DNA of 61,435 nt, counting the filler, from Nemertoderma westbladi (lineage: Eukaryota > Animalia > Xenacoelomorpha): the NCBI GenBank assembly GCA_032718475.1. It is 4 parts of 4 records of this genome, joined end to end, with 100 filler letters (N's around TTAATTAATTAA, not from the genome) between each part and the next. Parts side by side here need not be neighbours in the genome. Positions count along the whole stretch, not along the records: positions 25,831 to 43,810 come from JAUCBJ010000360.1; 3 more parts are not named here. One strand, given 5' to 3'. This document shows, in pieces, positions 8,537 through 59,527 of the stretch. Position 1 is the stretch's first letter. Each line of letters opens with the position of its first letter. The translations under genes were made by a program, and so were the position numbers. Under the pieces are notes generated by a model, which saw nothing but the letters and a program-made list of their open reading frames with translations, searched no databases and was not told where the DNA came from.

Positions 8537-8662
8537 TGTCGTGACCTCATAACAAACTAGATGGCTCGCCCCAATATACTTTATGGACCTACCCCAGATC
8601 GATTAACCTGTACTTAACACTGCAAGGCCTATCAGTATTCTGTATATAATTGAAACATAATA
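8537..8662 (+). repeat. 3' LTR (126 bp)
   Basis: Identical by eye to 3246-3371. Confidence 0.95.
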
Positions 8663-11600: not shown

Positions 11601-14600
11601 GGGTGGTGGGTTGGGTAGGAATGGTTCGGCCGCGAAGAGGTGATGGGTAGGGTAGTAATGGTTCGGCCGTGAAGAGGTGATGGGTTGGGTAGGAATGGTT
11701 CGGCCGCGAAGGGGTGATGGGTTGGGTAGGAATGGTTCGGCCGCGTAGGGGTGATGGGTTGGGTAGGAATGGTTCGGCCGCGAAGGGGTGATAGGTTGGG
11801 TAGGAATGGTTCGGCCGCGAAGAGGTGGTGGGTTGGGTAAGAATGGTTCGGCCGCGAAGGGATGTGGGTTGGGTAGGAATGGTTCGGCCGCGTAGGGGTG
11901 ATGGGTTGGGTAGGAATGGTTCGGCCGCGAAGGGGTGGTGGGTTGGGTAGGAATGGTTCGGCCGCGTAGGGGTGATGGGTTGGGTAGGAATGGTTCGGCC
12001 GCGAAGGGGTGGTGGGTTGGGTAAGAATGGTTCGGCCGCGAAGGGATGTGGGTTGGGTAGGAATGGTTCGGCCGCGTAGGGGTGATGGGTTGGGTAGGAA
12101 TGGTTCGGCCGCGAAGGGGTGATGGGTTGGGTAGGAATGGTTCGGCCGCGTAGGGGTGATAGGTTGGGTAGGAATGGTTCGGCCGCGAAGGGGTGGTGGG
12201 TTGGGTAGGAATGGTTCGGCCGCGAAGGGGTGATGGGTTGGGTAGGAATGGTTCGGCCGCGAAGGGGTGGTGGGTTGGGTAGGAATGGTTCGGCCGCGTA
12301 GGGGTGATGGGTTGGGTAGGAATGGTTCGGCCGCGAAGGGGTGGTGGGTTGGGTAGGAATGGTTCGGCCGCGAAGGGATGTGGGTTGGGTAGGAATGGTT
12401 CGGCCGCGTAGGGGTGATGGGTTGGGTAGGAATGGTTCGGCCGCGAAGGGGTGATGGGTTGGGTAGGAATGGTTCGGCCGCGAAGGGGTGATGGGTTGGG
12501 TAGGAATGGTTCGGCCGCGAAGGGGTGATGGGTTGGGTAGGAATGGTTCGGCCGCGAAGGGGTGGTGGGTTGGGTAGGAATGGTTCGGCCGCGTAGGGTT
12601 GATGGGTTGGGTAGGAATGGTTCGGCCGCGAAGGGGTGGTGGGTTGGGTAGGAATGGTTCGGCCGCGTAGGGGTGATGGGTTGGGTAGGAATGGTTCGGC
12701 CGCGAAGGGGTGATGGGTTGGGTAGGAATGGTTCGGCCGCGTAGGGGTGATAGGTTGGGTAGGAATGGTTCGGCCGCGAAGGGGTGGTGGGTTGGGTAGG
12801 AATGGTTCGGCCGCGAAGGGGTGATGGGTTGGGTAGGAATGGTTCGGCCGCGAAGGGGTGGTGGGTTGGGTAGGAATGGTTCGGCCGCGTAGGGGTGATG
12901 GGTTGGGTAGGAATGGTTCGGCCGCGAAGGGGTGGTGGGTTGCGTAAGAATGGTTCGGCCTCGAAGTGATGTGGGTTGGGTAGGAATGGTTCGGCCGCGT
13001 AGGGGTGATGGGTTGGGTAGGAATGGTTCGGCCGCGAAGGGGTGATGGGTTGGGTAGGAATGGTTCGGCCGCGAAGGGGTGATGGGTTGGGTAGGAATGG
13101 TTCGGCCGCGAAGGGGTGGTGGGTTGGGTAGGAATGGTTCGGCCGCGTAGGGGTGATGGGTTGGGTAGGAATGGCTCGGCCGCGAAGGGGTGGTGGGTTG
13201 GGTAGGAATGGTTCGGCCGCGAAGGGGTGATGGGTTGGGTAGGAATGGTTCGGCCGCGTAGGGGTGATGGGTTGGGTAGGAATGGTTCGGCCGCGAAGGG
13301 GTGATGGGTTGGGTAGGGATGGTTCGGCCGCGAAGGGGTGATGGGTTGAGTAGGAATGGTTCGGCCGCGAAGGGGTGGTGGGTTGGGTAAGAATGGTTTG
13401 GCGCGAAGGGATGTGGGTTGGGTAGGAATGGTTCGTTCGGCCGCGTAGGGGTGATGAGTTGGGTAGGAATGGTTCGGCCGCGAAGGGGTGGTGGGTTGGG
13501 TAAGAATGGTTCGGCCGCAAAGGGATGTGGGTTGAGTAGGAATGGTTCGGCCGCGAAGGGGTGGTGGGTTGGGTAAGAATGGTTCGGCCGCGAAGGGATG
13601 TGGGTTGGGTAGGAATGGTTCGGCCGCGTAGGGGTGATGGGTTGGGTAGGAATGGTTCGGCCGCGAAGGGATGTGGTTTGGGTAGGAATGGTTCGGCCGC
13701 GTAGGGGTGATGGGTTGGGTAGGAATGGTTCGGCCGCGAAGGGGTGGTGGGTTGGGTAAGAATGGTTCGGCCGCGAAGGGATGTGGGTTGGGTAGGAATG
13801 GTTCGTTCGGCCGCGTAGGGGTGATGGGTTGGGTAAGAATGGTTCGGCCGCGAAGGGCTGATGGGTTGGGTAGGAATGGTTCGGCCGGATAGGGGTGATG
13901 GGTTGGGTAGGAATGGTTCGGCCGCGAAGGGGTGGTGGGTTGGGTAAGAATGGTTCGGCCGCGAAGGGGTGATGGGTTGGGTAGGAATGGTTCGGCCGCG
14001 ACGGGGTGGTGGGTTGGGTAGGAATGGTTCGGCCGCGAAGAGGTGATGGGTTGGGTGGGAATGGTTCGGCCGTGAAGAGGTGATGGGTTGGGTAGGAATG
14101 GTTCGGCCGCGAAGGGGTGATGGGTTGGGTAGGAATGGTTCGGCCGCGAAGGGGTGGTGGGTTGGGTAGGAATGGTTCGGCCGCGAAGAGGTGATGGGTT
14201 GGGTAGGAATGGTTCGGCCGCGAAGAGGTGATGGGTTGGGTAGGAATGGTTCGGCTGCGAAGAGGTGATGGGTTGGGTAGGAATGGTTCGGCCGCGTAGG
14301 GGTGATGGGTTGGGTAGGAATGGTTCGGCCGCGAAGGGGTAATGGGTTGGGTAGGAATGGTTCGGCCGCGAAGGGGTGGTGGGTTGGGTAGGAATGGTTC
14401 GGCCGCGAAGAGGTGATGGGTTGGGTAGGAATGGTTCGGCCGCGTAAGGGTGATGGGTTGGGTAGGAATGGTTCGGCCGCGAAGGGGTAATGGGTAGGGT
14501 AGGAATGGTTCGGCCGCGAAGGGGTGGTGGGTTGGGTAGGAATGGTTCGGCCGCGAAGAGGTGATGGGTTGGGTAGGAATGGTTCGGCCGCGTAGGGGTG

Positions 14601-15015
14601 ATGGGTTGGGTAGGAATGGTTCGGCCGCGAAGGGGTAATGGGTTGGGTAGCAATGGTTCGGCCGCGAAGGGGTGGTGGGTTGGGTAGGAATGGTTCGGCC
14701 GCGAAGGGGTAATGGGTTGGGTAGGAATGGTTCGGCCGCGAAGGGGTGGTGGGTTGGATAGGAATGGTTCGGCCGCGAAGAGGTGATGGGTTGGGTAGGA
14801 ATGGTTCGGCCGCGAAGAGGTGATGGGTTGGGTAGGAATGGTTCGGCCGCGTAGGGGTGATGGGTTGGGTAGTAGGGGTGATCGGTTGGGTAGGAATGGT
14901 TCGGCCGCGAAGGGGTGATGGGTTGGGTAGGAATGGTTTGGCCGCGAAGGGGTGGTGGGTTGGGTAGGAATTGTTTGGTCGCGCAGGGGTGGTTCGGTGG
15001 TGGGTTGTGTATGGT
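8663..15015. repeat. 37-bp G-rich satellite, main array (~6.3 kb, roughly 170 units)
   Basis: Continuous tandem units of 35-37 bp with recurrent variants; the long minus-strand ORFs are a by-product of the repeat. Confidence 0.98.
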
Positions 15016-15904
15016 TCGGATGAACTGAGAAACTTTTGCGCTTTGCCAAAATTTTTCATAGTTATCCAGTAAGTATATACGTGTAAAGCGTGGGAATGCG
15101 TGGCAAGGAGAATTGTAAAGTTATTATATATAAAACGCAGTTGGGGGATGACAAAATGAAAGTAAATTCAAATCTGAACGTAATCCGTACCTGTGCTTGA
15201 GACTGTGACTAAGAATACCATATAATACAATATTATATTGAATGTGTGGTTGTCGAAGAACATAGGAAATATGGTAACCCCCCCCCCCCCCCCCCCCCCA
15301 CCTTCCCCCATGCTGTAAATCATTATTACATTACATTTTCGGACCTCATCTGTTCGTAAACACCATAGTAGAATAATATTGATAATGATTCCCTATATAA
15401 GACTAAGACAGTAGATTAGCCGAACGCGACAAGTAGAGGTAGCGTGAATTTTTGAGTAGCCGGAACGCGACTTTGAAAGTCGCGAACGGCTACTCTCCCA
15501 ACAAATTAGCCGTAGCGCGACGATACCATTATTTATTAGCAATAATTTAACATTATAAGGTCCGCTGTAATTATCAACAAACCATAAATAATTATTATTA
15601 TTTTCTTTATGTTTGCAGCGCCGCATATATTATTTAACAGTGATTTGCATCTAAGACTCTAGTAAATCTCATTATATCCTTTATTACATTATTTATCACC
15701 CACTTATTTAGCCGAGGGTTTCGTTAACTCCCCGTCGATAAATAACTCGTAATCACTATTTACATTCTTGTGTGTAAAGTAGCACAGCACTTTACAGTGT
15801 AATGATCCGAGTGGATTGTTACACGAACGAACGTAGTGAGAGTGTGAAAATAAAGCCACGAGGATCAGAATACTGTTAAGTACTTTACAACAAGTATGTA
15901 TGTA

Positions 15905-21796: not shown

Positions 21797-23921
21797 GGTT
21801 TTTTTATTATAATTCTGAAACAAACGCAGTTGGGAATCTGAAATTTTAGGACTTTTCCTAAAAATCTATTGTCTTCCTAGTAATGAAAACTGTTTTCAAA
21901 AATATTGGGTAGTTTTCGAGTTATAGCACCATTTTTTAACCCTACTTTTGGTACTTTTTTTGAGACGTTTTTTGAAAATTACATTTCATTAAATATTAAT
22001 TGTAACATCTCTATTTTTGATTTATACCGGTTTTTTGGTGTTAGCAATTGGATGGAATTCATATAAATTGATTTAGAAATTTCAAACTTGTTTTTTTCGG
22101 CGGGTGCCAAATTTTGGTGGCAGCACCAAATTTTGAAATATGTCAATTTTGTAAATTGATTGTTTGAAACTTGTTTTTACGCAATTGGGGTTTTTTGGGG
22201 TTCTGGTTTCGATAAAACATATACGAGTTGCACCAAGCGTATCAAACTTTTATTTTTCGGTGCTGTGTGCAAATTTTGAAAAAATTTCGAAATTTTGAAA
22301 ATCCATTCAATAGATAAAATTGCTTGTGAAAATTTATTTCTTGCATTTTAGAGGTTTATGGCTGTTCTGAATTCAATGGAATATATAATTATCGCACTAG
22401 ACATCTCAAACTTGTATTTTTCGGAAGTGGGTGCAAAATGTGGTGCTAGCACCAAATTTTGAAAACCATCAAATATATCAATTGATTGTGTCATCTTGTT
22501 TCTTGCGTTATACGGGTTTGTTAGGGTTCTGAATTCAATGGAATCAGTAAAAATTTTATAAGAGTTTTCAAACTTGTATTTTTCGCCGGTGGGTGAAAAT
22601 TGTTGTGCCAGCACCAAATTTTGGAAAATGAGTAAATAAATTGATCAGTAGATAGTATCATCTTGTTTCTTGCGTTATACGGGTTTATGCGGGTCCTGAA
22701 TCCGATGGAATCAATAAAAACAGCACTGGACATCGCAAACTTGTACTTCTTGGTGATGGGTACGAAATTTGGTGCTAGCACCAAAAGTTGCCAAATTACG
22801 CCGAAAAATACAAGTAGCAATGATCTGCCATATTTGAAATGAATTCCATTAGAATCAGCGCCCTAGAAAACCTGAAAATGTGAATTTATAGCATCGTATA
22901 AGTGAATTAAAAATGTTGTGTTCTAACTGAAAAGTGCTGGTTACTTGTTTTTTTCATTTTTTTCCTACGCGTAGAGGACTAAACAGCCATTTATGGTAAT
23001 CATATCATTTTTAAATATTTTCCAATGTATTTTGCGCCCCAGAAAACCTGTATTGAAAAACAATTAGCCGAAAAATGTGTGACGGGATCCGAGAATCCCG
23101 ACTGGTGTTGTTTATGTACGCGTCAGCCGCACCGTGTGATGGAAAAGGAATTTGTTGTTCCGACGTTCTTAATAATATAGATATATATGTGATGTACAGA
23201 TGTAAATACAATAGCAGATAGCAACTGGTTATATGTTAATAGACCAGTAATATGGGTGACGGCGGTGACGGTCTTAAACTGTCACCGTACTGCCATGACT
23301 GTACTGAGATAACTGAGCGACTGAATAACACCGACCAGTAATATACTACACTACCTTTGGCCGTGTTACTCAGCTGATGGCCTGCTGTCCCCCCATTGGC
23401 CGACAACCTAATTCTCGCCCTGAACATTGTGGGAGTGTTTCCCCCCCCCCCCCCCCCCCCCCCCCGCTGCTGTTACTCTCTCTCCTTGAGGTACCTTGAC
23501 CTCTAACCTCTATTGTGTGAGGCCCTTTGGGGTTTGTCGTCCCCGTTGCCGTTTATTGGGGGTGGTACGAGGTTGATTGGCAATCAACCTCGTGCTTCCC
23601 AATATTGCTTAAAGGCCCTGCTTTCCCACTTATTGGGGTTGGTGAGGCGGAATTGAATACGCTCACAAAATGTAACTTTCAAATTTTGTGAAAATTGTGC
23701 ACTACTTGTAATTTTGGTGCTGTAATATTACCACCCCAGTACATTTTTTCGAAAATCTTTTTTCGGTCGGATCCACACTAGTGATACCTACGTACAAACA
23801 AAAAATCAGACGTTTTCGTTAATATTTGTAGATTTTAGAGGGAGGGGTCAATATGACCCCCCCCCCCCCCCCCCCCCGGTATTTTGTACAGCATTTTATA
23901 GCCCGGTACTAATAGGGTTAA
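21797..23921. mobile_element. piggyBac-like non-autonomous element, copy 2, carrying a solo LTR
   Basis: Direct repeat of 18688-20040 ending AGGG-TTAA; has ~190 bp missing from copy 1. Confidence 0.65.
23078..23667 (-). mobile_element. Solo LTR of a BEL/Pao family related to the 42182-42761 LTR
   Basis: TGTGA...TCACA with 5-bp TSD AAATG (23073-23077, 23668-23672). The empty site is visible in copy 1 (CCGAAAAATGTAAC, ~19791). Colinear similarity to 42182-42761. Confidence 0.9.
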
Positions 23922-25730: not shown

Positions 25731-25830
25731 NNNNNNNNNNNNNNNNNNNNNNNNNNNNNNNNNNNNNNNNNNNNTTAATTAATTAANNNNNNNNNNNNNN
25801 NNNNNNNNNNNNNNNNNNNNNNNNNNNNNN
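25731..25830. other. Artificial contig linker
   Basis: N-run, TTAATTAATTAA (stop in six frames), N-run. Confidence 0.97.
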
Positions 25831-30620: not shown

Positions 30621-31025
30621 AACATCATTTATTGTTTTGGTTAGAAATTGCCGCCGCTGTAACCTGCTCTTTTCCTTCAATTGGAAGGTAACAACATCGT
30701 TTATTGATTCCCACCTTCCCATCGTCCTTAATCGTCTGGATATAAACTCCGCTGTATCAGCTGGCACAGGCCCGTATGGTGATCATAATATCTGGGGGGG
30801 GGGGCAGAGGCCAAATCTGGGGGGGGGGGGGGGGGGGGCAAACCCATAACTGGGATTTGGGGAGCATACAACAAAGTGAGAGTTAATTTAGTACATAAAG
30901 TATAATCAATATTGTTGAAAGGTGTGTGGGGCGAGCCACAAAGTTGGTGGAGCCATTGGCGAATTGACACTGTTAAGGAGTATGTCAATAATGGCAAATA
31001 GTTGTTGACGTAACTATTTTGACAT

Positions 31026-33162
31026 TCAAATTATGGCGCCGACATCGGCCCACTCCTCGAAGATCTTAAACTTCTCCTCGTCGTCCATCCAGTCGCACTG
31101 GTGTCTGTAGTGCCCCTGGAAGTTGCACTTAGAACACCGGTTGTGAAACCGTGGACACGCCCCCATCCTATGACTCGACTCGCGGCAGTAGAGGCAGCTC
31201 GTCCCCTTTTGGAATCGGTACAAGCAGCTCCTTTCCTGGTGAGTTTGCCTCCCGCAGTAATCGCAGCCGAGTACCAATGCCTCCCGCCCCACGTCGTCTT
31301 TCGTCCCAAGCGATCTCCTCGGTCTATGGAGTCGCTGGTAAGCGAACTTCTGGAGGTTAGCGTCCCTGTCCATGTCTATCTCCTCGCCTCGCCTGGGCAT
31401 CGTCTCTCCAAATACTACCCGTGGTGCCGTTCCCGGTTGCTTGCCCAACCTGATGGTGCTCCCCGCGAAATCCATCGCCGGCTCATCATGCGCCCAGGCC
31501 CGCTTGCTTTGTCAATCCCAGAAGGCCCACGCCCGGCTGGCCGTCACCACCCTCACGCCAACCCAGTCTGTGTCTGAGTGGCCGATTCTTCCAATGGGCG
31601 GCATTTCTCCGAACTTGTCGTCATCCTTGTCCTCCTCTGGGAGTGGCTCCAAACCCAGTATCCCGGTGGATCCACTGTGTCCCTTCCCACCTTGGCTCTC
31701 GCCCATGACTCTCCATCCTTCCAGTTCCCCTGACCTTCTCTCTGCGAAATCGCCCTCGGCGCCCGCTGGTATGGGCGTCGTCTGCAATCCCGATGTCGAC
31801 TGTTTTGGTGATCCTACCGTCCACCCCAATTCTCGCCCTAGAGACTCGCCCGAACTCCCTGATGTCCAGTGTAGATCGTCCAAGGCCGCCTGTTCCTCGA
31901 ACCCGTAGCCCTCTCCTCTAGCTTCCGCCTCCCTTTCTTCTGCCTCACTCCTTTCTCGTCTAGCGATTTCTTCCAATCGCTTCGCCTCTCGCCTCTCGCC
32001 TATCTGCCTCTAGCTGCTCCCACCTCTGATATGGCGTATCCACCTCCCTGTCTACTAGATATCGGCAGTTATAGTATACCGACTCGCCCTTCAGCCCCGG
32101 GTGGTCTACCAGACCCTCGAAAGCCACTTTGAAGGCTCTTCTGTAGTTCAGGGGTGATCCCGATAGCAGAAATGCTGTTGGTTCTCTTTCGATAACCACG
32201 GTCATGAATAGGTTTAGCAAACCTATCATTATCCAGTCCTCCTGCAGGATATATCGCTTCTGATATATCTTTATCGCTCCTCTCCGGAATTGATACACCT
32301 CTAGTTTCCCTGGCCTCGCTCCCCACTTCAGCGAGTTCGCCAAGTCCGCTCCGTACTCCTCCCTGAATTTACCCCAGTCCATTGGCTTATGGCATACGAG
32401 CCCCATTAGCTGGCCCATCGCCACCGCTCCACAATGGCCCGCGTTCTCTACTAGTCCCAACCCGTCTGGCGCCGTCATAGCCATGTAGACCGTTTGCATG
32501 TCAAGGAGGTTGGGAGTCTCCGGACCGATGATACTCTCCGCATCGTCACGGATCGCCGATCCCACCTTTATCGTCGACTTCTCTCTTACTAGGCTCTGCA
32601 CCGCCTTTGGCAACCGGTTTAACTTCGGCCTGTTCTTCTTCCCATACGTTCCCAGATCGAACAGGAATATATCCCCATTTGGCGCGGCCAAATGTAGGAG
32701 TATGGTTCTGGCCGACCCCGCCGACCCTCTTCTCGAACCTTCCTCGTCTTCCACGGTCCCCTCATCGTCTAGGACCATGTATCCTCCCCTGCTGACGGAC
32801 TCTACGAACCTCTTCCAGTCCTTTCTCGGTGGTTCCTTTGGATACTTCGGTATCCCGAACTTCGCCTCGTCTCCCTTTACCACGTAGTGGAAATGCTCTA
32901 AGATCGCATTGTCTAGCGATGGTGTCCCGTAGGTCCCGACCAGCCGCTGTTCGTGCACCTCCCTGAAATGGTCCTGCAGCGCTCGCGCCTTGTGACCCTT
33001 CTCTAACCGCTCGTAGTATCCCCTCGTCTTCTCTTCCGGATGCCTTTCGGTGAAATCCACCAGTATCTCCTTTCCTCCCAACTCCGCCTTTCTCTTTCTA
33101 ACAAGTTTCTCCGCCATTTCGAACTCTCCCGATTGCTCACCTATAAGGTGGTGCCTTACCAA
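31026..33162 (-). pseudogene. Extra ORF (~700 aa when rejoined): DEDDy/DnaQ-type 3'-5' exonuclease, charged linker and three CCHC zinc knuckles
   Basis: ExoI YMVLDDEG; LLHLAAPNGDIFLFDL; LPKAVQSLV; ExoII KVGSAIRDD; LLDMQ; ExoIII-like YQKRYILQED. One frameshift (~31975) and one in-frame TGA (31512) link it to CDYC..H..C, CLYC..H..C and CSKC..H..C. Confidence 0.75.
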
Positions 33163-33537
33163 GGCGCAATATAAGTGAGTGATGTAGTTAGGATGGTCTG
33201 TACGGTCCGATAATGGCCTATCTCTCTCTGAATGCTAGGTTATTGCCTAATTTTTCTACTTTTATTTTCTAAAAGTGCCAAATTTCCTAAATTCCCTAAT
33301 TTTGTCAGTTACTTTAATCATGTTCTGGAATATCCTGCCTACTGTTACCATAATTTGTCTAATTTTTAATTTTTAATTTTAATACTTATTTTAATCCTAC
33401 AACTGTGCTATCAGTATCTACTAATGGATTATTCTATTTTTATTCCATTTTCTGGCCTATTCTATGGGCTGTGCAGTACAGTAGTATGTCTCGTGTGGCC
33501 TACACGATCTTTCCTGCTGTACCCACGTGCCCCCCTC

Positions 33538-33960
33538 TCACTACTCACTACTAACTCTACTAACTTTCTAACTAATTTCTACTAACTCTTACTAACTCTT
33601 ACTACTAACTCCAGTAACTCTTACTAACGGTACTGCGTACCCTCTTACTAACTGACTCCACTAACTCTTACTAATGGTACTACGTACCCTCTTACTACTC
33701 TTACTAGCTAACGGTACTACGTACCCTCTTACTACTCTTACTAACTAACGGTACTACATACCCTCTTACTACTCTTACTAACTAACTAACGGTACTACGT
33801 ACCCTCCTACTACTCTTACTACCTAGCGGTACTACGTACCCTCTTACTACTCTTACTAACTAACGGTACTATGTACCCTCTTACTACTCTTACTAACTAA
33901 CGGTACTACGTACCCTCCTACTACTCTTACTAACTAACGGTACTACGTACCCTCTTGCTA
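33538..33960. repeat. 37-41-bp tandem repeat between pol and the extra ORF
   Basis: Units CTAACGGTACTACGTACCCTCTTACTACTCTTACTA; most contain the hairpin GGTAC-TAC-GTACC. Confidence 0.9.
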
Positions 33961-34130
33961 ACTACTATCTGCTTACTTACTTACTGCGTACTTACTATGT
34001 ACTTATTACTTTCCTTTCTCTTACTCTCTTTTTCTATTATTTTTATTTTTATTATTTTTATATTTTGTGTGGGAAGGGCGTCTCACCCTCAATCCCGCCC
34101 CCCTCAGTCCAACACTTGGACGACTAAACT

Positions 34131-37100
34131 CTACGGTGCCCCTTCTAGCAGGCAACACTTGCCTACAGCCCTCCTGTAGGTCTTCCTGTCTTTCGCTCCT
34201 ATCTTACCCCCTATCCGCACTTCCACCGATCGGACTCTTCCATCCTTGTCGGAGTAAGTGTCCACTACTCTTGCTAATCTCCATTTATTGTTGATAATGG
34301 TGTCGTCCATGACGATCACCAAATCACCCTTCTTTAACTCCCTAGTGGTATTTCTCCACTTGCTCCTCCTATGTAGTGTGGGTAGGTATTCCTCGACCCA
34401 CCTCTTCCAGTACTCTGCGCTTATCGCCTTAGAGACTTTCCAACTCTGTCGGGAGTGTATATCATCTGGGTCTACACCCCGCATGTCGATGGTCGCCGGC
34501 CTCTCCATTAGAAAGTGACTGGGTGTCAGCACATCTAGTGATTCTGGGTCATCATTTTCTGGGTATAGCGGTCTGCTATTATCGTCTCCTCATGGCTGCC
34601 CTGACTTCCTCTCCTTCCAGGATATCTAAGGCCTCTGCCAGCTCGTTCTCCGCCCCCACAAAGTTGGTTCCATTATCGGAGTATATTACTGCGATCGTCC
34701 CACCTTTGCGGTCTCTGAACCTCTCTTGGGCATTGATGAATGCCGATGCGGTTGCGTCTTGGGCGAGTTCTATTCCTACCGCCCGCGTGTTGTTACATAC
34801 GAAGATAATGCCGTAGCGCTTCTCCGTGTGCCGCATCACCCAGATCTTTATCGGCCCGAACATATCTACACCGCAGTGCGTGAATAGAGGGTTGTGCTGT
34901 TTCACCCTGCTGGCCGGTAATGGCGCCATCTACTGTACGGCCCGCTCCTTCCTCGTCCGTCGGCAGGTCTCACACTGCCCCACTACCGCCTTCACCTTCT
35001 TTCTTAGCTGTGTGATCCAGAAGGTCCTCCATATGTCCGTGAGGGTCCGGTTGGTGCCCCCGTACAATATCGACTTGTGGGAGTCCCAAATGATCTGGTG
35101 GACTATCGGCAATCTATTTGGGATGATGATGGGTTTCAGTGGGATAACGAGGCTGTTGTTATTTAGCACTCTGGAGTTCATTACTAAGATCCCATCATCA
35201 TTGAGTTGTGGCGACAGCGTGATGAGCTCGCTGTCCCGACGAAGATGTTGTTGTTTACCGACGCGCTCCACTTCGTCGCTGTAGTTCTTTCTCTGTTTGT
35301 AGCGAATCATGGCCTTGGCCGCTCCCTCCAGATCGATGTTTGGTTTCCTCTTGGCGTCTTTGCCAATTCCCTTGAGGAAATCCCCGAATGCTCTCCAGTA
35401 CGCTACCAACTTCTTGGTCTTATACCAACTTGAGCTGTAGCTGAGGAGTTTATCCGTCGGGTTATCACATGGTTCTTCTGGTTTTGGTTGCACGTCCCTG
35501 ATCTCCCTCACCATCTGACTATATATCTCTTCACCTTCTGAGTCTCCCCCCTCTTCCTCTAGTGCTACTTCCTCTGAGCCCGGGTCCACCTTCTTCATAG
35601 GTGGCCAGGCTGTCTTATCGTTCAGGAATTGTGGCCCATGCTGCCACAATACTTCCTTCTTCAAGAAAGTGTGGCGTGCCACGCCCCTCGATAACAAGTC
35701 CGCTGGGTTCTCGTCCGTTGGGCAGTAGTGCCACCTTTCCAACTCAGTTGTCGCTCTTATTTTGTCCACCCTATTTGCGATGAATGTAGGGTATCTCGTC
35801 TTCTCAATGTGTAGCCAACCAAGCACTACCATGGAGTCCGTCCAGTAGTGTGTTTCCACTATGTTGGGAATAGTGTCCATCAAGTAGGCTGTGGCCCTTA
35901 CTCATAACCTCGCAGCTGTCAACTCGAGTTTCAGGACCGATGCTGAATCTGGCGGTGTCAACTTTGCTTTGCTGAATGCAAGTCTGGGCTTATGAGCACC
36001 CTCTCGTTGTACTAGGTAGAGTGCCACTCCGTATGCTTCCAATGATGCATCGGAGAACATGTGTAGGTCCAGATTCGTCATGTCCCCATCCGGGAAATAC
36101 ACGCGTGGCATGCTGTATGTCCCCATCTGTTCTAAACTATCTGTCCACTTACTCCACTGCTTGCTGATCTCTTCCGGGACCTCTGTATCCCACTCGTCCT
36201 TTAGCTTATATACTTTCTTAAGTATTTGCTTCCCCGTGACTAATAGTGGGGATGCTAGGCCTAGGGGATCGTATATCCTTGCTATGTACGATACATAGCC
36301 CCTCTTTGTATGGATGTCCGCGCCCTCTTGGCTCAGCTGGTACTTGAACTCGTCTGTCTCTCGGTTCCACACGATCCCTAACGCCTTCTGCTGGGACTCT
36401 ACCCTCTTGTTCGCCATGTCCTGTCCCTTTGCTGTCGTGGGATTATCCATGGTCGACTCTGGCCTCCTGTCCTCTATGGCTTTCATAAATTATTCCGAGC
36501 TGGATTGGAACTTGGTCAGGTTAAACCCGGATCCCTTCAGGATGTCGTGAACCTCGCGCCCTGTATCCAGTAGTTCTTTAACCATGTTTCCAGACTCCAT
36601 TCCGTCGTCTACATAGAAGCCGTGTCGAATCATATCGATGGCTTCAGCGCTATACTTCTCCTCTTTCCCCTCTACTGTATCCCTCACAGCCACAGTCGTC
36701 GTAAATGAGGACGACTTGGCCCCCATATTCTGCACCACCATCTTGTACATCGGTATTGTTGACGGTTCCTCGTCGCCGTTGTACCATAGGAAGCGCTGAC
36801 TGTCACTATCCTCCTCTGCCATACGGACTTGGTTGAACATGCCTTCAAGGCGTGCCTCCCATTTCTGAATCTGAGCAGGACCTCGATTCTTGAGTTGCAG
36901 ATATTAGGACCCTCCAGCCAGATAATCGTTTAGGCATTTGCCGTTGGTCTTAGCTGATGCGTCAACTACCATCCGCAGTTTACCTTTCTTCGGGTCTAGA
37001 GCCACGTGAAGTGGTAGGTAATAGGTCCTGTCCGTGTTCGGTTCGTCGACCGGTAACTCCATGCCCACGGCCCATCCTTTCTTGACATACTTTCTTATCG

Positions 37101-40100
37101 TTTTATGAATGTACTCATTCTTTTTGGGGCTCCGTTTTAACGTTTGCTTCAACTTACGAAGCTTCGTGAGTACCATTCCCTTGTTGTCTGGTAGCGGTAA
37201 TTTTGGTTGTTTCCATACCATCCCTATGGTGTACCGCCCCTCGTCACATCTCATCGACTCCTTTACGCTTTGTATTGCCTGTTTATCTTCTACCGAGGTT
37301 CCGACCCCGGTCTCTTTCAATCCCTCATATTCCTGCCTGAGTAGTCTCCTGAGCTGCTCCTCCGCTCCCTCATCTTCCATCTCCCTCATAGTTCCCGCGA
37401 ACATGCACCCTGATGTCTCCAACATCCTAAACGGTATCTTGGTTCTAATTGGGCCGCTTAGCATCCACCCGAATGCCGAATGGTGTTAGAATTGCCACCG
37501 GGTCACGCTGCCTGTCTTCGCCGAAGACCGTCTGCATTCTCTCGTGGGCCGTCGGGCAGTCCATTCCTACTATAATGGATACCTTCCTAACGTTCACCTC
37601 TGGTATTGAGAAGTCGATACTGTCCAGGAATCTATATTGTTCGACCTCGATGTTGGTTGGTCGCCTGGCATTGATATTTATCGACTCTATCACCTGGATG
37701 GGGTCGATCGTCGCCCCATAATCGCATCCCGGTGCTATCGCTGCTATCCCACACTGTCCGGTCCTCATCTCCAGGACCTCATCTTTGCTGGAGATGGTTG
37801 TTACCACCATTCTACTTGGCCTCGTCTTCAATCCTATCTCTTCGGCCACCCAATTCTCGACCAATGTGAAGGCTGCTCCACTGTCGACCAGCACCAGCGT
37901 GGTTACTGATCGATCGCCTTCTCCGATCACCCTCACTGGTACTACCCCGAGTAGTACCGTTCCTCTCTTCTTCGCCCCTACGGTGCTTGTCGCCATTGTC
38001 TGTCCTTTGCCTTGACCGAACTTAATTGGTGTTTCCTTGCATTGGTTTGCTCTATGTCCACCCGTCACACATCGAGGACAGACTTCGTTCCTCCTCGCGT
38101 ATTCTATCTGATCTTCTCTGGGCAGTGCTTGCCAATATCTGCAGTTCATGGTCTGATGAAGTGCGTTCGTGTGTAATTGGCATTTGTTGTTTGGGTTATA
38201 GCCGAACTTATATAGTGCACTGCATATTGCACTTGGGTTCGTACCTAGATCCCTACTATTCTTATTGTTTGGGTTCGGCCTACTGGGCGTGTTGGGGTTG
38301 TGTTTGTTTGTGTTGTTATTTTTCCCCTGTCCGCTCCATGGTGTGGCCCTACCCACGGCTACATGTGGACTAGCAGTCCCCTGCGTCGCCACGTATGGCA
38401 GCGATTGTCTGAGCTTTGGCAATGCGTTCACTGTGTTGTGTTCTGGTTTCGGCCTGTTGTATTCGGTCTTTGGCCCCTTCCCCAGACTATCCTCGCTATA
38501 GACTGGGTCTGTAATCAATTCGGCTGCGTAGTTCAGGAAGCTTGACATTTCTTCTAAGCCCGGTTCTGCACCCTTCTTCTCTCGAGTGGAGGAAGCAATT
38601 TTCCTCCACTTGTTGCGCAGCCAGATCGGTAGTGCCTGCGCTATCGTGGTGATGTTATTAGATGCGTTGAGTTCGTATGGTGCGTCTAGCGTCTTTAACA
38701 CAATTAGCGCCTTCTCGACTTTGTTCGCAAATGTCTTTATACTAATGGGGTTATCCTGTAGGCCACCCGATGTTATACCTCTCAGGGTCTGCCGGATGAT
38801 CTTGGCCAGGTGCCCGTACTCCCTGTATAATGCCCGCCATGCAGTCGTGAAGCCACCCTCGATGCCCTGGTACTGCCTCACGATGTCGTATGCTGGGCCT
38901 CCTGTATACACTTGTAGATATTTTAGGCACTCCGCCTGCGTCAGGTTCTTTGTCAATATTTCATTGCTGTACATGCGCCGAAATTGCAGGTATTCCTCCG
39001 GCCTACTTCCATCGAATTTAAATGGTTCTACGGGTGGTATCTCGATCCTGGTCTTTAATGCATCGATTAATGTAGCCATTCCCATCGCCTGTGCTTCCAA
39101 TGGGTTCGATGGATGCTGTACAGATTCTCCCGTTGGGTGCGGTCCGCCCGTCATGTCTGTTGCCCTTCTTTGCGTCGGATATATCATTGGGGGTAACGGC
39201 CCCCTCCATATTTCCGTGTCGCAGGATCTGTTCTCGTCCAGGGGGTTTGATGTTCTTATTCCTGTTTGAGTATATTGTTGACATTGTGATGGGGGAATGT
39301 CACCCTGCCCCCCCCCCCCCCCCCCCCCCCACCGGTATGTTTGGTACTGGGGTTGATGTTAATATATTGGGGCCCATACACCTATCCGCAATAACTCTCC
39401 CCTCCCCTGGATATATGTTATGTCCTTGCATGCTATAGTCATACTGTTGTGCTGGTACCGGTATAGGCCTATCCACTTCTGGCCTACCTACCGGTATGTA
39501 CTCCGCGACTTCCGGGTTTAATCCCGTCGTCCGCGCTGCCCTATCGCCTACATTATCTCTCCCAGCATGACCTATAGTATGTGCAGTAAGGCCTACAGTA
39601 TGTCCTGCAGTCTGTATGTGTCCCTCTGGACCGAAGTTTAACCTTCTCGAATAATCTAAGAAGTCCTCCCCACGGCTACCGTATCCTCGATCGGCAGCTA
39701 TATCCCGTCGGGAAGTTTCTCTTCGATCCCCTCTGCTATTCTCGTCCTCGTACCGGTACGCCCTGTACCCCTCTCTCGGCGTATAGTACACCTCACCATT
39801 TCGCGTCTCTCCGGGACGACGGCAATCTCCCGGAGTTCGACCCCACCTACTCTCCAACTCCATTTCTACTACCGACGGCTCGCTGTCCATCCTCGCTCTC
39901 CTGTCGCTCGCAACGACACTTCTTCTACACTCTTCTCTTCTTCTTTCTGCAGTGTAGTGTCCCCTCTCGTGTGATCTCTCGTCGACCTCCCGGTTAAACT
40001 CCACTGTTCTTCTTCCCTCTTCCGACTGGGCTCGACGTCTCGTCGCTCGCCCCCTCGCGACGTCAACCTCTCTCTCTCTACTTGGTCGCACGCTGCTGGG

Positions 40101-42104
40101 GATATTCGTAATCCCCCTACTATTCTCCATCGCCTGGTGCTGCGGTTTACCTAATTCGCCCTGCGCATTATCCGCCGACGCCTGTGGGACATTCTCTGCC
40201 CCCCACCCCCCCCCCCCCCCCCCCACTCGCCACCTATCACTTCACTATCTCTCGCTTCGCCTCTACACCCCACTCTAGTCGACGCACTAATTCTACTGCG
40301 GCTGGGTCTATTCACCCCCGCCTCTCCCTCTATCACTGCGTTGCCTGGCAGGCTCCCGTCGGGTTGAATCAAACCCGCCACTCCCTGCGCACTAACTACG
40401 TGGCCTACCAGCCCCCCATCGGGGTCTCTCACCCCTGTTACTCCCTGCATACTAGCTACGTGGCCTACCAGGCCCCCGCTGGTCGGACCACCTACATCTG
40501 CCACGTTCATATTAATAGCACCATTATCAATACTATTTTCTAAATTATTTAAATTATTAGAATTATTCTCTGAATTCGGATTATTATTTAAATTATTCTG
40601 TATATTCGAATTAGAATAGGGATTATTTCGTTTGTTTGAATTAAGATTATTATTTAGATTATTTTGCGTATTTAAATTTAAATTATTTGAATTATTTTGT
40701 ATATTCGAATCTAGATTATTTGAATTATTTGGATTATTATTTAAATTAGGATCGGTCGGATTTAAATTACTATTATCGGGCAAAATATTATTTCCTGCAA
40801 TGAAAGTTTGATTAGGGTTATCCACTACGGTACTATTAATATTAACGTTTTCTAATGTATTATTATTACCCCCCCCCCCCCCCCCGCCCGTATGGTTACA
40901 CCAGTCTTGGGTCTGTCGTCCGGTCCCTGTAAGTGGGGTATTAACAAACGTTTCCATAACCTCTGGCTCCTCGTAAATACTACCCGAGCCAGCCTCACTC
41001 TCTGATAGCCCCAACTGCGCCAGTTCTAATCGGTGTTTCTGTTTGGCCTGATATTGCATAAGCCCCCTCAATCGGGCATGCATATCATCCTGCACATGCT
41101 TTCCCATTCTCTCTCTCTCTCTATCCTCTCGCAGACTTTGGTCGGCCAACTCTGCCTCCCTTGCCTCCTGCTCTCTAAAGTTTCTTGCAGCCCTCTCAGC
41201 CCTCTCTTTATTCTCTCTCGCCAACTCTCTTTCTCTAGTAACGCAGCTCCCTCTTCCAACTGCCTCTCTAACTCTTTCTGGTCTAGCGCCACCATGTCCA
41301 ATTGACACGCCAGATCTATTTCTAACAAACTTCTTGCTTTTGCGGAGGATGTAGCGGACTTGTCGGTCGCGACGGACTCCCGTCGCCTCTCTGTCCTACT
41401 AACTTTCCCCCGCTTTCTGGGGTTCTCGCTAACCAACGAGACCGAATCCTCGGGGTTAATCTCGGATTCACCCTCGTGCGGGTCTGCCCAACCCACTAAC
41501 TTAATTCCCCTAGCATCCACCAAATACGGCCCTATGTACACTATCTGGGGCTCCATTATCCCGGATCGCCACAGTTCAAATAGTTCGGTGGCGACCCCCC
41601 TCGCTCTCTCACTGGCTAGTTCTCCCTGTCCGAAGCGAACTAGGTATGTAAAATGTTTATTCGACTCACCTAGTCGCTGACTCAACTTCCCTTGGTCGAT
41701 CTTTACTCCTTCCCTGGCCTCCTTAAGCTGTTTCCTTGTCGCGTTGTAGGCTCGTCGGAGCCGGTCACTGGTTCCGACGTCCTCGTCGCCGACCTCTCCT
41801 CCTCCCCTCCTGGTTCGGCGTCGTACCGGCGGCCCCACCGTCGCCGTTCCGGTGGGCCGTCCGTCGCCCTCGGCCTGTGGCTGGCCGGCGACATCGGTAC
41901 GTCGACAGCCGTCGTGCGTCGACTCGTCCTCTCGTCCTGGTAGACGGCCGCCCTCCGCTTGGGCTGCCAGATCGTCTCTTTCCGGCGAGTCTGGCGTGCT
42001 GGTCGATACCGTCGCATTACGGCCTCACGGATTGTTTCGTTGGTATCGTCCGGGGTCCGCGGTGGTGTCGTCTCTCCCTCTAGATTTCGGGCTTCTTCGC
42101 TCAT
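34131..42104 (-). pseudogene. gag-pol: BEL/Pao gag-pol polyprotein (frameshifts, stops, deletions)
   Basis: Gag PFKFDG/LKYL, CQLH..H..C and CPRC..H..C; protease LVDSGA; RT YYLPLH, RMVVDAS, MFNQV, FYVDD; RNase H FSDAS, LELTAA, WTDS; integrase GVDMFGP, SDNGTNFVGA; C-terminal YWKRWVEEYL. Confidence 0.95.
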
Positions 42105-42181
42105 CTTTTAACTCTCTGATGGTGGCTGGCAGTCACAGTCTCAACAGTTCTCTAGACTTTGGTACTGGGTGACTTTAGTAC

Positions 42182-42761
42182 TGTGATGGGATCAGAGGAT
42201 CCCGACCGGTTGATTTAAGTTACGCGTCACCGCACGATTGAGAAAAGAGTTTGTAGTTGTGTATCCTGGTCTTAATATAACCCGATGATAATATAGATAT
42301 ATGTAATAGCACAGTTGGAATAATGCAGTAAAGAATGCATGTACCGGTAAATAATATGATAATAGGTGATGGCGGTGGCGGTACTAAAGTGTCACCGATC
42401 TGCCCTACATGACTGAGATAACTGACCGGTAAAGTGCGCTATGCTGATAATATATATTGATTATTCCTACACTATCCTTGGCCTCTGTACCTAGCGGATG
42501 CTCTCCTCTCCCATTGGTTGATATACCAATTCTCGGCTCCCACCTCTGTGGGAGTGCTTCCCCCCCCCCTGCTGTTACTTTCCCTCTCCAGGAGGTTTAA
42601 CCTCTGACCTCCCTTTGTGTGGCCCTTTGGGGGTTTGTTGTCCCCGTTATTGGTTGTGTGATACGAGGTTAATTGGGGTTAACCTCGTATCCCCAATATT
42701 GCTAAATGGGCGCCGTTTCCCAACTTTATGGGGTGGTGGGTGGAATTGGAATCCGATCACA
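42182..42761 (-). repeat. 5' LTR of the BEL element (580 bp, TG..CA)
   Basis: TGTGAT...ATCACA inverted termini; boundaries match the TSD-delimited solo LTR at 23078-23667. Confidence 0.88.
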
Positions 42762-43810
42762 GGGTTCCATCGTTATGCAATTGACATTTGTATCCTGGTT
42801 GTAACGTTCCTTGTATAGCCCTACACGTATTGCGCGTAGATTCACATCTACCAGTTTAGTGTTTTGGTTATTTGGATTTGGCCTACTGGGTGTGTTGGGA
42901 TATATTTGTTCATGTTATTATTTTGTCCCTGTTTGTGCCACAGTGTGGCCCTATTCCCCAGCTATCTGTAGACTTGCAGTCCCCTGTGTCGCCGCGTATG
43001 GTAGTGACTGTCTTAATTTTGGTAACGCATTTGCCGCACTATGTTCTGGTTTCGGCCTGTTGTATTCGGTCCTCGGCGCCCTCCCCAGACTATCCTCGCT
43101 GTAGACTGGGTCCGTGATCAGCTCCGCCTCGTAATTGAGGAAGTTCGACATTTCCTCTAGGCCCGGTTCCGCACCTTTCTTCTCCCGGGTGGAGAAGGCG
43201 ATCTTCCTCCACTTATGTTCCTTAGCCAGATTGGCAGTGCCTGCGCTATCGTGGTGATGTTATTCGATGCGTTGAGTTCGTATGGCGCATCCAAGGTCTT
43301 CAGCACGATCAGCGCCTTCTCGACCTTATTCGCAAAAGTCTTGATGCTGACAGGGTTATCCTGCAGGCCACCCGATGTTATTCCCCTCAAGGTCTGCCGG
43401 ATGATCTTGGCTGGGTGTCCGTATTCCCTGTCTAGGGCCCGCCATGCAGTCGTGAATCCACCCTCGATGCCTTGATACTGCCTCACGATGTCGTACGCTG
43501 GGCCCCCTGTGTAAACTTGTAAATATTTTAGGCACTCCGTCTGTGTCAGGTTCTTTGTCAATATTTCGTTGCTGTACATGCGTCGGAATTGCAGATATTC
43601 TTCCGGTCTGCTTCCATCGAATTTGAATGGCTCCACTGGTGGCAGCTCGATCCTGGTCTTAAGCGCATCGATGAGTGTTGCCATTCCCATCGGCTGTACT
43701 TCTAGTGGGCTCGATGGATGCTGTACAGACTCCCCTGTTGCTGGGTGCGGTTCGCCCGTCGGGCCTGTCGACCTCTTCTGCGTTGGATATATCATGGGGG
43801 GTAACGGTCC
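42762..43810 (-). mobile_element. gag fragment of a sister BEL copy, interrupted by the LTR above
   Basis: Protein nearly identical to 38150-39190 (IELPPVEPFKFDGSRPEEYLQF); ends abruptly at the LTR terminus. Confidence 0.9.
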
Positions 43811-43910
43811 NNNNNNNNNNNNNNNNNNNNNNNNNNNNNNNNNNNNNNNNNNNNTTAATTAATTAANNNNNNNNNNNNNNNNNNNNNNNNNNNNNNNNNN
43901 NNNNNNNNNN
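43811..43910. other. Artificial contig linker
   Basis: N-TTAATTAATTAA-N. Confidence 0.97.
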
Positions 43911-50896: not shown

Positions 50897-53800
50897 TAGA
50901 ATTATATTCCCTAAATGCCGTGGATTTTCAAAATTTTATTTTATTCGGATTAACTTTGTAAAGATTGCTTTGAGTTCTCATTCGTATTGGTTCTATCATT
51001 TATATGTGTAGTAGGTATCGAGTTCGAATCCTAGTAAGTGCGAATTATTTTTTGTGCAGAATTTCAACTCATTTAAATTAACCGCTACAAATTAATTGCA
51101 TTTATCTGTACCAATGAGACTGTAGTTATTTGATTGTAACCAATGTCGTGCAAGTTATATATTAGCTGGACCAATAGCTATCTTTAAAACCCTGTTAGAA
51201 CCTATAGAACAATCGAGAATTTTCTCGATTGATTGCGGCACAAATTTGCTATATAAAGGTGCGATTTGTTCATTAGTTATCAATCTTATACACTAATTCA
51301 ATCTCAATTGCTGATCTACCTTAACTTTCTGTCTTATTTCAGATTACATTGTTTATTGTATAATAGTTATTATATCCTTTGTAATAAAAGTCAGAAATAC
51401 TAGTCACATCTCAGCCCTTTTCTATCTGTTTTACTATGGATTCACTACGGTGAACAAACTCAGGGACAGGATGGCCGGCTAGAGATCGGGCCGCAGCAAT
51501 GAACGGGAACATCACGGGAATGTAGACGAGAGACAACCCGCAATACCATTTTAGAGTTATTCGCCCATCGCCTGAAAGGTTAGACAGCGTTCGATCCTTG
51601 CTACCTAAGTGTAAGACCAAAAGATCAAAAGGTAGATGTAGTGACACGCTGTAAGCCCAAAATTACATCATAGGGACTGTACTGTCTTGATTCAGGAAAA
51701 ACCCACAGTAGACCTTCATATTCCTACGGGGAGGGAGAGAGAGCAGATACTAGTACGCAGATAGGACGTAGGCACACCGGTACAAGGCATACACATTGGT
51801 TAGGGTGCAGCAAACTGTACGCTTAACTCTTGCTAAGTACAGGTGTGTGTGCGACTATTTGCAGTACGACAGTGTCCATTACATCAGAACTTGTAGGCTA
51901 GGGGGTTGCTGTGTTTTCACCTGAATTGGGATTGTACTGTTCAGGCGGTAGGGCAGTTTACACTAGGCGCAAATAAATTGAGGCTATCAGGGATATACTA
52001 ACATCTACCGTGTCCCCGCCAACGCCCTAATAGGAAGTTACCCGGACTACCTGGGTGACTAAAATTCTAGATAGGAGCCAGGATAGCTATTAGTACCCGT
52101 ACGCCTACAGTAGTAAACTAACACATCTCTTCTTAGTATCAGGGACCTGGTACCTAAAATTGCCGAATTCTGGGCGTAGTATTAACCTTATGCCTGAATT
52201 TGAGTCCTGGAAATACGCAAGAGGGGAAGGAACCTTATCATTCGTGAGTATTGGACCTACAAGTTACAAATTTAGAATATTCGTAAATGCACACTGCACC
52301 CAGTAATTATATATGTGAAGGAGCAAAACTGTTTTCGACCGTTCAGAATTAACACACGCGCGTTAGAAATTATTTACACCTCGAAATATATAAAATTAAC
52401 TTTTGTCCGTACTGTGCTTTGCCCGCTAGTTAGACATCTCCAAATATCTGCCTCTGTACCTAGCTAGCGTCCCTTTGCCCAACCATATAAATCACACCGC
52501 GGCAAAGTATACGAGCCCCTTAGTCCGTCAGTGAGTCAGCCTGATTTTAGGATTCGCTGCGCGGGATTTGTTTTATCGAAGTTTGTCTGCTCGTAGACTG
52601 TTTTCTGCCTCACCGGTTATAAGAGATCGATACTGCAATATATTCACTTACTTAGAGTTTACTGTTTTGGTGAGAAGGTCGGATTTATGATTTGATTCAC
52701 AAACTTTACAGTAGGATATTGCAGGTATTGTTACCGTCTTTTCGCATAGTAGGAATAGGCGTATCTCTTCCAATAGTAGGAATATGTTTTACTGAACTAC
52801 GGTTCGGTAGGACTAAAGTTTTTTGAAAAATTTGTATTTTGAGGTAAAAATTTGTATTTGATTAGCTAAGTGCTAATTTTTGAAATAAAATTTGATTTGA
52901 ACCGCGTGTAAAATACTTTTGGAATTGAATACCGGTGTTTAAAAAGGGTTTAAATACCATATTGTACCGGTACAAAAATTTTCGTAAAGTAAAACCTAAC
53001 TCTTTTGTTTTTCAGGATTCAGAACTCATTTCTAGACTGTAACGGGAGCAAGACCGTGTTTAGCAAGTTTGGGAGATAGATAACTCAACAACTTTGGTTG
53101 GGAAAATCGCGTTTCGTCCGCAACGTTAAAAACGGAAAGGTTCACGTCCGGTTTGTATCTGGGAATCTGTTTTTCTGGAGAATTATTGGAGTGGGTGAGT
53201 TCGAAAAGTTGCATAAATAAGTTAGGCATTACCGTATTAGCTAAAATTATTGTGGGTTCCACTGTCTCAAGTATTTATGCATTCCGTATGATTTCTTTGT
53301 TCATTGCTGAATTAGTCCGTATTATTGTATTTAATTTACCTTTTGATAACGCATATCGTTATCCGATTTATTTGTTATAAAATTGGCCGCTAGGCTAATT
53401 TTATTATATACTTATTCCGTGACATTTATTTGCTGTAAAATTGGCCGTTTAGGCTAATTTTATCCATCTGCTATAAAATCGGCCGGTAGGCTAATTTTAT
53501 AAGACTGTAATTAGTACCGTTTAGATATAAATACGGTAAACTCGATACTTTGACACTCACTTCACTTGACTTACAACTACCGAAATGAGTGACAAACAAG
53601 ACTATACGAAGAATACACCTACCGACTATGACTCGTGTGACGCGGATAAGTCAGCAGCGGAAGAACAACAGGGGAAGACTCGCGAGCCTACCGAACCTAC
53701 ACCGTGTGCGTCACCAGTACACCCAACGGGAGTACCGGATGCCGTAGTACGAGGTGACGGCAGGACCGAGGACTTTCTAACTGTTCCGCAACCTAGACAT

Positions 53801-55546: not shown

Positions 55547-55646
55547 NNNNNNNNNNNNNNNNNNNNNNNNNNNNNNNNNNNNNNNNNNNNTTAATTAATT
55601 AANNNNNNNNNNNNNNNNNNNNNNNNNNNNNNNNNNNNNNNNNNNN
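55547..55646. other. Artificial contig linker
   Basis: N-TTAATTAATTAA-N. Confidence 0.97.
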
Positions 55647-58101: not shown

Positions 58102-58497
58102 ATGTTACGAATCGTAGCATCTACTACCCGGGCGCTACGGGGTGTAATCCCAACACGAACTCGCGGTTTATCCACGGATCAAGGGTACAACTTCCGCCTA
58201 ACATCGGAGCAACTCGACCTCCAGCAGATGGCCCGTAAGTTCTCTCGCGAACGCATCCTGCCCGTGGCGGCCCACCACGACCGCAGCGGGGAGTACCCGT
58301 GGGAGATTCTCCGGGAGGGTTGGCGACTGGGACTCACGGACTCGGCGATTCCCACGGAGTACGGGGGCACCGGGCTGTCTGTGGTGGACGGTTGTCTGCT
58401 AGGAGAGGAACTCAACTACGCGTGTTGCGGCATAGCGGCGGCTCTCGCGATAAACGTTGTTGCCGAGATCGCGTTGATGCTGGCGGCCAACGAACAG
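58102..58497 (+). CDS. ACADM: Medium-chain acyl-CoA dehydrogenase, coding exon 1 (includes mitochondrial presequence)
   Basis: Arg-rich leader; YNFRLTSEQ..ARKFSRERILPVAAHHDRSGEYPW; IPTEYGG; EELNYACCG; GT donor at 58498, phase 0. Confidence 0.9.
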
Positions 58498-59414: not shown

Positions 59415-59527
59415 GAATGAAACCATACGCGTTTCAGCATCACTGGCGTTTCGGTTAGTTAGTGGCGGTATCAACCCCGATTTAAAATTGTCTAAAAAAT
59501 TTAAAGTTGTTTCTTTAGAAAGAAATT

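Follow-up and report, generated by a model that had tools for sequence, protein, structure and literature searches.

Which kind of protein is encoded by the long, broken reading frame that lies behind the integrase of a long terminal repeat (LTR) retrotransposon in Nemertoderma westbladi, and does this gene belong to the retrotransposon at all? The question is raised by a 61,435-nucleotide stretch of the assembly GCA_032718475.1 (hereafter the window), in which the N runs around TTAATTAATTAA are gaps at 25731-25830, 43811-43910 and 55547-55646. A preliminary description had placed here a BEL/Pao element with an exonuclease and zinc-knuckle gene in the position of env. We regard it as fairly probable that this extra gene is element-borne, combines a DEDDy-type exonuclease fold with knuckles, and is likely the third open reading frame (ORF3) of a BEL/Pao family; this judgment concerns the identity of the gene, not its target. 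Small RNAs keep the LTR retrotransposons of animals in check, and to our knowledge element-encoded enzymes that counter such silencing are hardly known. If the gene acts as tentatively proposed below, it would represent a retrotransposon-encoded enzymatic counter-defence to PIWI-interacting RNAs (piRNAs) or small interfering RNAs (siRNAs).

Identity of the retrotransposon

One LTR retrotransposon, 11.7 kb so far, starts at 42761 and is read on the minus strand as far as 31033. Its 580-bp 5' LTR (42182-42761) has TGTGAT...ATCACA ends, which fits the BEL/Pao range of 0.2-1.2 kb with TG...CA ends, and it holds a TATA-like box at 42456 and a TCAGTT initiator-like site at 42425. It is followed on the same strand by the primer-site position (42162-42181) and by a gag-protease region of several broken frames (37445-42107), where Pfam recognized DUF1759 (E 1e-9) and an aspartyl protease (E 5.7e-5) within 37445-39358. 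The pol region (34131-37485) contains the reverse transcriptase (RT; RVT_1, a weak E of 0.0036), the Pao-type RNase H (RH) region (Peptidase_A17, 4.5e-37), and the integrase (IN; Integrase_H2C2, 1.4e-9; DUF5641, 1.1e-25; and a weak rve). Together with the protease (PR), the domains are ordered PR-RT-RH-IN, as the BEL/Pao definition asks. Because BEL-specific Pfam domains occur in this order, the element is, as judged by its domains, a BEL/Pao element, and that part of the preliminary description is upheld. Since pol is interrupted by several in-frame stops and frame changes, this copy is considered dead. No 3' LTR of the element is present in the window, the copy being cut at 31033.

Some other features of the element may be recorded here. 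The region upstream of the gag core (39300-42107) is unusually long; its frames, rich in Arg/Glu or in Asn and 313-414 amino acids in length, had no family match in Pfam. Shortly past the integrase stop there is a purine-rich tract (34093-34105, minus strand), either a relic or an internal polypurine tract; no LTR start comes after it, and no LTR terminus lies nearby. A search of viral contigs with two pol pieces gave no match.

Structure of the extra gene behind pol

A spacer of 1,014 bp separates the integrase stop from the extra gene, which lies on the same strand and runs from a Met at 33117 down to 31033. The spacer contains a tandem array of ~37-bp units (33533-33960); no strong splice acceptor was found in it by the pyrimidine-tract pattern, and a weak AG was seen by eye at 33141-33142. 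The gene is made of three ORF pieces, namely 31960-33234 (with the Met at 33117), 31512-32009 and 31026-31511. The second and third share one frame and are split by a single stop codon at 31512-31514, and the first is in a different frame; this is the arrangement described previously, the frameshift once placed at ~31975 being found near 31982. From its N-terminus the gene comprises 99 codons of no family (32821-33117), a predicted WRN/RNase D-type 3'-5' exonuclease domain (32200-32820), a charged Gly/Glu-rich linker past the frameshift (31512-31990), the frame of which is coding by synonymous bias, and, after the in-frame stop, a third piece (31033-31511) with three knuckles.

The triple CCHC module that had been reported was indeed found as three exact CX2CX4HX4C knuckles, starting at 31265, 31196 and 31136. 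Even one such knuckle arose in only 16 of 20,000 shuffles of the knuckle piece, which gave a weak zf-CCHC_4 match (E 0.04-0.09) against Pfam and NCBIfam. All of the quoted DnaQ/RNase D-like motifs could likewise be located: VLDDEG at 32775-32758, LLHLA at 32700-32686, FLFD at 32667-32656, KVGSAIRDD at 32568-32542, LLDMQ at 32508-32494, and YQKRYILQEDW at 32265-32233. The same-strand, purine-rich likeness to pol was also borne out, as the purine share is 0.59-0.67 in the extra gene and 0.57-0.66 in pol, and the trinucleotide profiles of the two correlate with an r of 0.83, a correlation that does not exceed 0.46 when the window's gypsy element is taken instead. The nine best non-self windows by this profile were on the element's own strand or overlapped the gene itself.

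No membrane segment was found in the 690 codons present (best hydropathy window 1.46), the true end of the gene being missing; hence it is probably not an envelope gene. No second copy of the extra gene was found within the window, nor any LTR or LTR end between the integrase and the gene or past the gene. Thus, of the env position assigned earlier, the location behind pol without an intervening LTR can be retained but, as the window holds no 3' LTR, only in the words "behind pol".

Evidence for an exonuclease fold

The exonuclease reading is based on two lines of evidence, neither of which imposes an alignment and which agree on both the family and the region. First, residues 95-310 of the extra gene scored 0.94 in the ESM Atlas, sharing 185 of 256 features, and 25 of the 30 matches belonged to PF01612; the best named match was a Werner syndrome-like exonuclease, in whose cluster 38% of the members carry the family. 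The whole piece scored 0.89-0.90 and is counted with residues 95-310 as one source. Second, we built our own profile from 120 bacterial WRN-like proteins, leaving the query out and using glocal alignment, on which the extra gene scored 25.4 (z 4.25), a value attained by none of 500 shuffles (3.9 +/- 5.1). It was also the best of 33 long ORFs of the window, the runner-up scoring 12.7, and by HMMER it came first of 291 window ORFs. Among the first profiles, only the set with 10 WRN-like proteins ranked it first (E 0.075), and the 10-sequence seed of the 120-protein profile had its best structure matches in WRN, MUT-7 and EXD2.

Upon alignment, the motifs landed in order on the Exo I, II and III columns. 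D117 and E119 fell on Exo I, with 119 or 123 as the site of the Glu according to the alignment used, and D192 fell on Exo II. Residues Q286-Y289-E293-D294-W295 matched the Q..YAA.DAW motif gap-free, and on this alignment the last ligand would be Glu293, not Asp. Numbered from Met 33117, the candidate metal ligands are D117, E119, D192, Y289 and E293. A structure model from the single sequence reached a predicted local distance difference test (pLDDT) score of 32, and an AlphaFold model from an alignment with 97 WRN-like rows reached a pLDDT of 69 and a predicted template modelling (pTM) score of 0.70; in it, D117/E119 belong to the first strand, and Y289/E293 to the last helix. The latter matched RNase D, Nibbler, EXD1, WRN and Trypanosoma brucei RNase D (TbRND) with Z of 10.5-11.6 and a root-mean-square deviation of 3.6-4.0 over 153-167 aligned residues.

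A number of results weigh against the fold. Because its alignment was filled with WRN-like proteins, the AlphaFold model is circular, and it and its structural matches indicate compatibility only. The exonuclease piece had no match in Pfam or NCBIfam, and a search of PDB sequences returned one chance match only (E 2.4). By HMMER, the first rank came with an E of only 0.037; on our own profile, the shuffles reached a maximum of 24.8, near the 25.4 of the gene, and true distant members scored 50-76. Comparison by hhalign with the 10 sequences was not significant (probability 0.8%), and RNase D/NrnC-like profiles did not put the gene first. Shuffled proteins (not parts) attained an Atlas score of 0.9 in 4-10 of 100 cases. 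Within the alignment, the DDE of Exo I and the Glu that replaces Asp in Exo III are both atypical, and there is an insertion ahead of Exo III. A second register lacks the Tyr and the acid, their columns being occupied by Arg and Lys.

Relatives of the gene were also sought in large collections. None of 5,038 candidates of near length and none of 5,344 of longer length among 5.8 billion proteins matched it; there was no match at E 0.001 among 1.84 billion representative proteins, nor any in viral contigs, species genomes, plasmids and phages. A metagenome scan with 281 pattern matches pointed to two loci with 49-residue matches; one (L001) proved to be an unrelated 603-aa protein on a gene-dense contig and was rejected as chance, and the other (L002) was likewise judged chance.

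Overall, the proposed DnaQ-type fold stands as remote homology by the Atlas and our profile, but without a significant sequence match in Pfam, NCBIfam or PDB; similarly, the HMMER check for PF01612 gave nothing above the Pfam cut-off, and the homology extends over the domain with a modest margin. We conclude that the N-terminal domain of the extra gene very probably adopts the predicted WRN/RNase D-type (DEDDy, DnaQ-like) fold. Catalysis by this putative exonuclease is a much closer matter, being only slightly more probable than not.

Copies of the gene and signs of selection

Copies of the gene were judged from the contigs of four public runs aligned to 30860-33520, which represent at most three samples, one possibly being that of the window itself. 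Contig pieces matching the extra-gene region numbered 6,209, 3,916, 4,033 and 43 in the four runs; they spanned 80-100% identity and, in three runs, covered all 30 bins. Summed contig depth was not taken as copy number. The spacer between the gene and the tandem array is likewise multi-copy, with contigs passing from the gene into the spacer. It follows from the variant contig pieces in the four runs that the extra gene and its upstream spacer form a many-copy family.

The copies also clarified the end of the window gene. In three runs, contig pieces start at 31033; one run includes four contigs that continue there with a median of 150 other bases. Since the contigs of other copies match to 31033 and are followed by unlike sequence, the window copy has been cut at this point by another repeat; the truncation point lies at 31026-31033, with an unrelated multi-copy repeat coming next. 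Because 31026 is thus not the end of the gene, the gene has at least the ~690 codons present, and its C-terminus may lie beyond the knuckles; the protein of ~700 residues with C-terminal knuckles that had been described is therefore confirmed in the length at hand, but not in its terminus.

In each of the four runs, 99-100% of the contig depth disagrees with the stop codon at 31512-31514, and the indel at the frameshift was displayed by 8, 5 and 6 contigs in three runs. For a count of variable sites, 40 of 551 rows were chosen by support; 36 of these were within the gene, and the 4 outside were dropped. Conservation of the Exo III residues among the copies is not apparent from these 40 rows. 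Of the sites that vary among copies, 12 of 16 are synonymous third-position changes, in contrast to only 3 of the 20 at which the window copy stands apart from almost all the rest (Fisher test, p 0.0005; binomial test against 0.3, p 0.0003). The linker accounts for 11 of the 16 varying sites, the knuckle piece for 3 and the exonuclease piece for 2. Since the synonymous bias is seen among the copies and not in the copy-specific changes, the extra gene shows the pattern of one kept by purifying selection in the family and decaying in the window copy.

It is to be noted that some properties of these data count against the reading as an element-borne, selected gene. The synonymous count used 36 of the 551 rows, with the exonuclease piece contributing only 2 of the 16 varying sites, and the contigs with the frameshift indel make up no more than 14-26% of the depth at that point. 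These contigs of the four runs are short; no single one spans both the extra gene and pol, nor was a copy with pol, extra gene and 3' LTR together found among the contigs examined. The recurrence of the gene at many loci, suggested in the preliminary description, is thus supported by multiple copies with synonymous bias in the contigs of four runs, but the order pol-gene-3' LTR was not seen in them.

Ownership and role of the gene

As the window copy is truncated and has no 3' LTR, we infer rather than observe that the gene is placed inside the BEL/Pao element. It could instead be owned by another mobile element, for example as its first, nucleocapsid-like gene, nested past the BEL integrase with the same orientation and with the tandem array as its 5' end. 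Three CCHC knuckles are typical of gag or ORF1 proteins, nesting is common in the window, and the purine-rich tract past the integrase stop is situated as at a former element end. Two further points speak for nesting: the 3' LTR that should close the BEL element is absent, and the element is already 11.7 kb long, compared with the 4.2-10 kb given for the family (PMC8742986). Nonetheless, without an LTR or LTR end past the integrase, nesting implies that the BEL element must also have lost its own; moreover, the composition is continuous from pol into the extra gene, unlike in the other elements of the window, and no inverted or direct terminal repeat was found to bound the stretch. We therefore consider a nested owner unlikely; should it be real, the gene would still be an orphan with nuclease and knuckles, owned by a mobile family as yet without a name.

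With the gene taken as the ORF3 of the BEL/Pao element, the window stretch would be a broken, 3'-truncated copy of a many-copy BEL/Pao third gene. Given the 1 kb of non-coding spacer between it and pol, the gene may be read from a subgenomic RNA of its own. Its product would possess a predicted two-metal site formed by D117, E119, D192 and Y289, with Glu293 in place of the last Asp; by analogy with trypanosome RNase D, it would grip single-stranded RNA with its knuckles while the nuclease domain shortens the RNA from the 3' end. Host small silencing RNAs aimed at the element are ranked first as its target, although this remains a tentative assignment. Equally tentative is the full proposal, that of a high-copy BEL/Pao lineage with an active RNase D-like, small-RNA-trimming nuclease which destroys piRNA/siRNA guides or makes a tRNA-free primer, and which was acquired independently of the gypsy cases described below.

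Second in rank as a target, and unlikely, is the element's own RNA or primer. Inside the particle, an active nuclease could act on nucleic acid of the element itself, either by trimming the RNA 3' end to a duplex for a self-primer or by proofreading the ends of complementary DNA. The primer site does not start with TGG, as tRNA-primed elements do, and over 14 bases it is able to pair with the LTR at 42380-42397, i.e., ~30-45 bases past the initiator-like site and also near the RNA 3' end; the knuckles, in turn, could bring the protein into particles. However, the pairing of the primer site with the LTR (-17.6 kcal/mol), which the primer idea needs, is weak, being equalled by 15 of 500 shuffled LTRs and by 44 of 201 internal 20-mers. 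Furthermore, the gene is separate and not fused to RT, and replication in most BEL elements takes place with no gene of this kind (PMC8742986). On balance, a particle-borne role of this kind is improbable.

Ranked third, and less probable still, is an ORF3 that retains the exonuclease fold but is catalytically idle, resembling EXD1, Egalitarian and Maelstrom, and that binds the element's RNA to package, protect or localise it. The atypical Exo I and Exo III motifs and the register with Arg and Lys would suit such a role, as would the nucleocapsid-type knuckles, and Egalitarian and EXD1 were among the structural matches of the circular model. The better register nevertheless has acids at all four positions, with Gln, Tyr and Trp matching the WRN-type motif without a gap, and the ORF3 nucleases of rotifers, where the motif is likewise altered (DEED), are interpreted as possibly active (PMC5408684). 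Finally, that the N-terminal domain is not DnaQ-type at all and its motifs are chance likenesses in an unfamiliar protein would account for the blank results of all standard library searches and for the Atlas scores of shuffled proteins, but is very unlikely given that the Atlas and the independent profile converge.

If the BEL/Pao ORF3 reading is true, a second superfamily, with many copies and signs of selection, would indicate that DEDDy cargo has been taken up repeatedly, and the many natural variants would provide material on whether catalysis matters.

Other features of the window

Relatives of the BEL/Pao element are present elsewhere in the window. A solo LTR of a related family (23078-23667), 67.5% identical to the element's LTR, has the 5-bp target duplication AAATG on its flanks; related elements have also left gag/protease fragments at 42774-43810 (83% DNA identity) and 59487-60111 (67-73%). 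As the former abuts the 5' LTR, the BEL element seems to have inserted into the gag of a relative.

A gypsy-like element on the plus strand (3370-8491) contains its RT/RNase H stretch twice (4545-6218 and 6128-8491), due to either tandem duplication or an assembly artefact. Long G-rich tandem arrays at 8600-15100 and 2700-3300 have a GC skew of ~0.65 and are open in several frames. At 53570-55594, a coiled-coil-rich open frame of 674 codons runs into the gap; it had no Pfam match and is possibly another gag. The frames at 58063-58518 and 59048-59458 read like exons of host genes, which we take to be of the acyl-CoA dehydrogenase type.

Comparison with known systems

Within BEL/Pao itself, the profile of the family (Belpaoviridae) from the virus taxonomy committee ICTV lists gag, pol and env only (PMC8742986). 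The roo element and the BEL/Pao elements with Chuviridae-like glycoproteins resemble the present one in superfamily and in having an additional gene behind pol, but, where their descriptions were accessible, those third genes are fusion glycoproteins, whereas the extra gene is a predicted nuclease without a membrane segment as far as it is present (PMC8742986, PMC13524379). No exonuclease gene in BEL/Pao was found in the literature searched, which lay outside Repbase, GyDB, closed journals and supplements such as the element lists of PMC3118150; the available portions of PMC3118150, PMC12440569 and PMC13524379 contain no word beginning with "nuclease".

As for the domain, the extra gene, which is placed by prediction in the PF01612 group as a whole and in no one subfamily, has the order and spacing of DxE, LxLA, FLFD, KVG..D, LD and Q..Y...acid.W in common with the PF01612 group (WRN, EXD2, MUT-7/Nibbler, EXD1 and Egalitarian), and differs from it in the Glu at the last site, the insertion before Exo III, and an identity of ~20% to the bacterial reference set. 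A transposon-borne DEDDy exonuclease is also known from Dada DNA transposons, although there, going by the text at hand, the domain sits inside the DDE transposase, in contrast to the separate retrotransposon gene described here (PMC3706591).

By analogy, the nearest known build is that of trypanosome RNase D. TbRND (PDB 7C42-7C4C) likewise joins a DEDDy exonuclease to a CCHC zinc finger, which is C-terminal there and enhances RNA binding and cleavage; according to the accessible part of the report, it binds and trims small single-stranded RNAs, including guide RNAs, and its overexpression depletes the guide RNAs (PMC7797062). It was among the top matches of the circular model and was also matched by the reference profile. 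It is, however, a cellular gene of a protist, while the extra gene belongs to a mobile element and has a long linker, and sequence similarity between the two was not detected.

The closest parallel in a mobile element is found in the gypsy-like retrotransposons Juno and Vesta of rotifers. DEDDy ORF3 genes were described in these bdelloid LTR retrotransposons, and are shared with Terminons (PMC5408684); the rotifer DEDDy ORFs are mentioned again in the portions available of PMC6431247, PMC5718144 and PMC6338049. The preliminary remark that no BEL lineage with this cargo was known holds in the literature searched: what is likely new is the BEL/Pao host superfamily and the orphan sequence, the kind of cargo being already known. 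In the available text on the rotifer ORF3, it is a separate gene behind pol, assigned to RNase D/WRN-type DEDDy enzymes by remote homology only, with an altered catalytic motif, no membrane segment and a conjectured function, all as in the extra gene as far as it is present; the same guesses, RNA 3' processing and silencing, were made for it, and subgenomic RNA expression is considered for ORF3 genes in general (PMC5408684). On the same partial view, the two systems differ in several respects. The rotifer elements are not BEL/Pao and are low-copy, while the family of the extra gene is many-copy; the rotifer motif is DEED, while the extra gene has Glu at the last position; and the triple CX2CX4HX4C module is not reported for the rotifer ORF3 there. 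Moreover, as far as descriptions can be compared, the variation test in rotifers, made on env and GDSL ORFs, looked neutral, whereas the extra gene shows synonymous bias.

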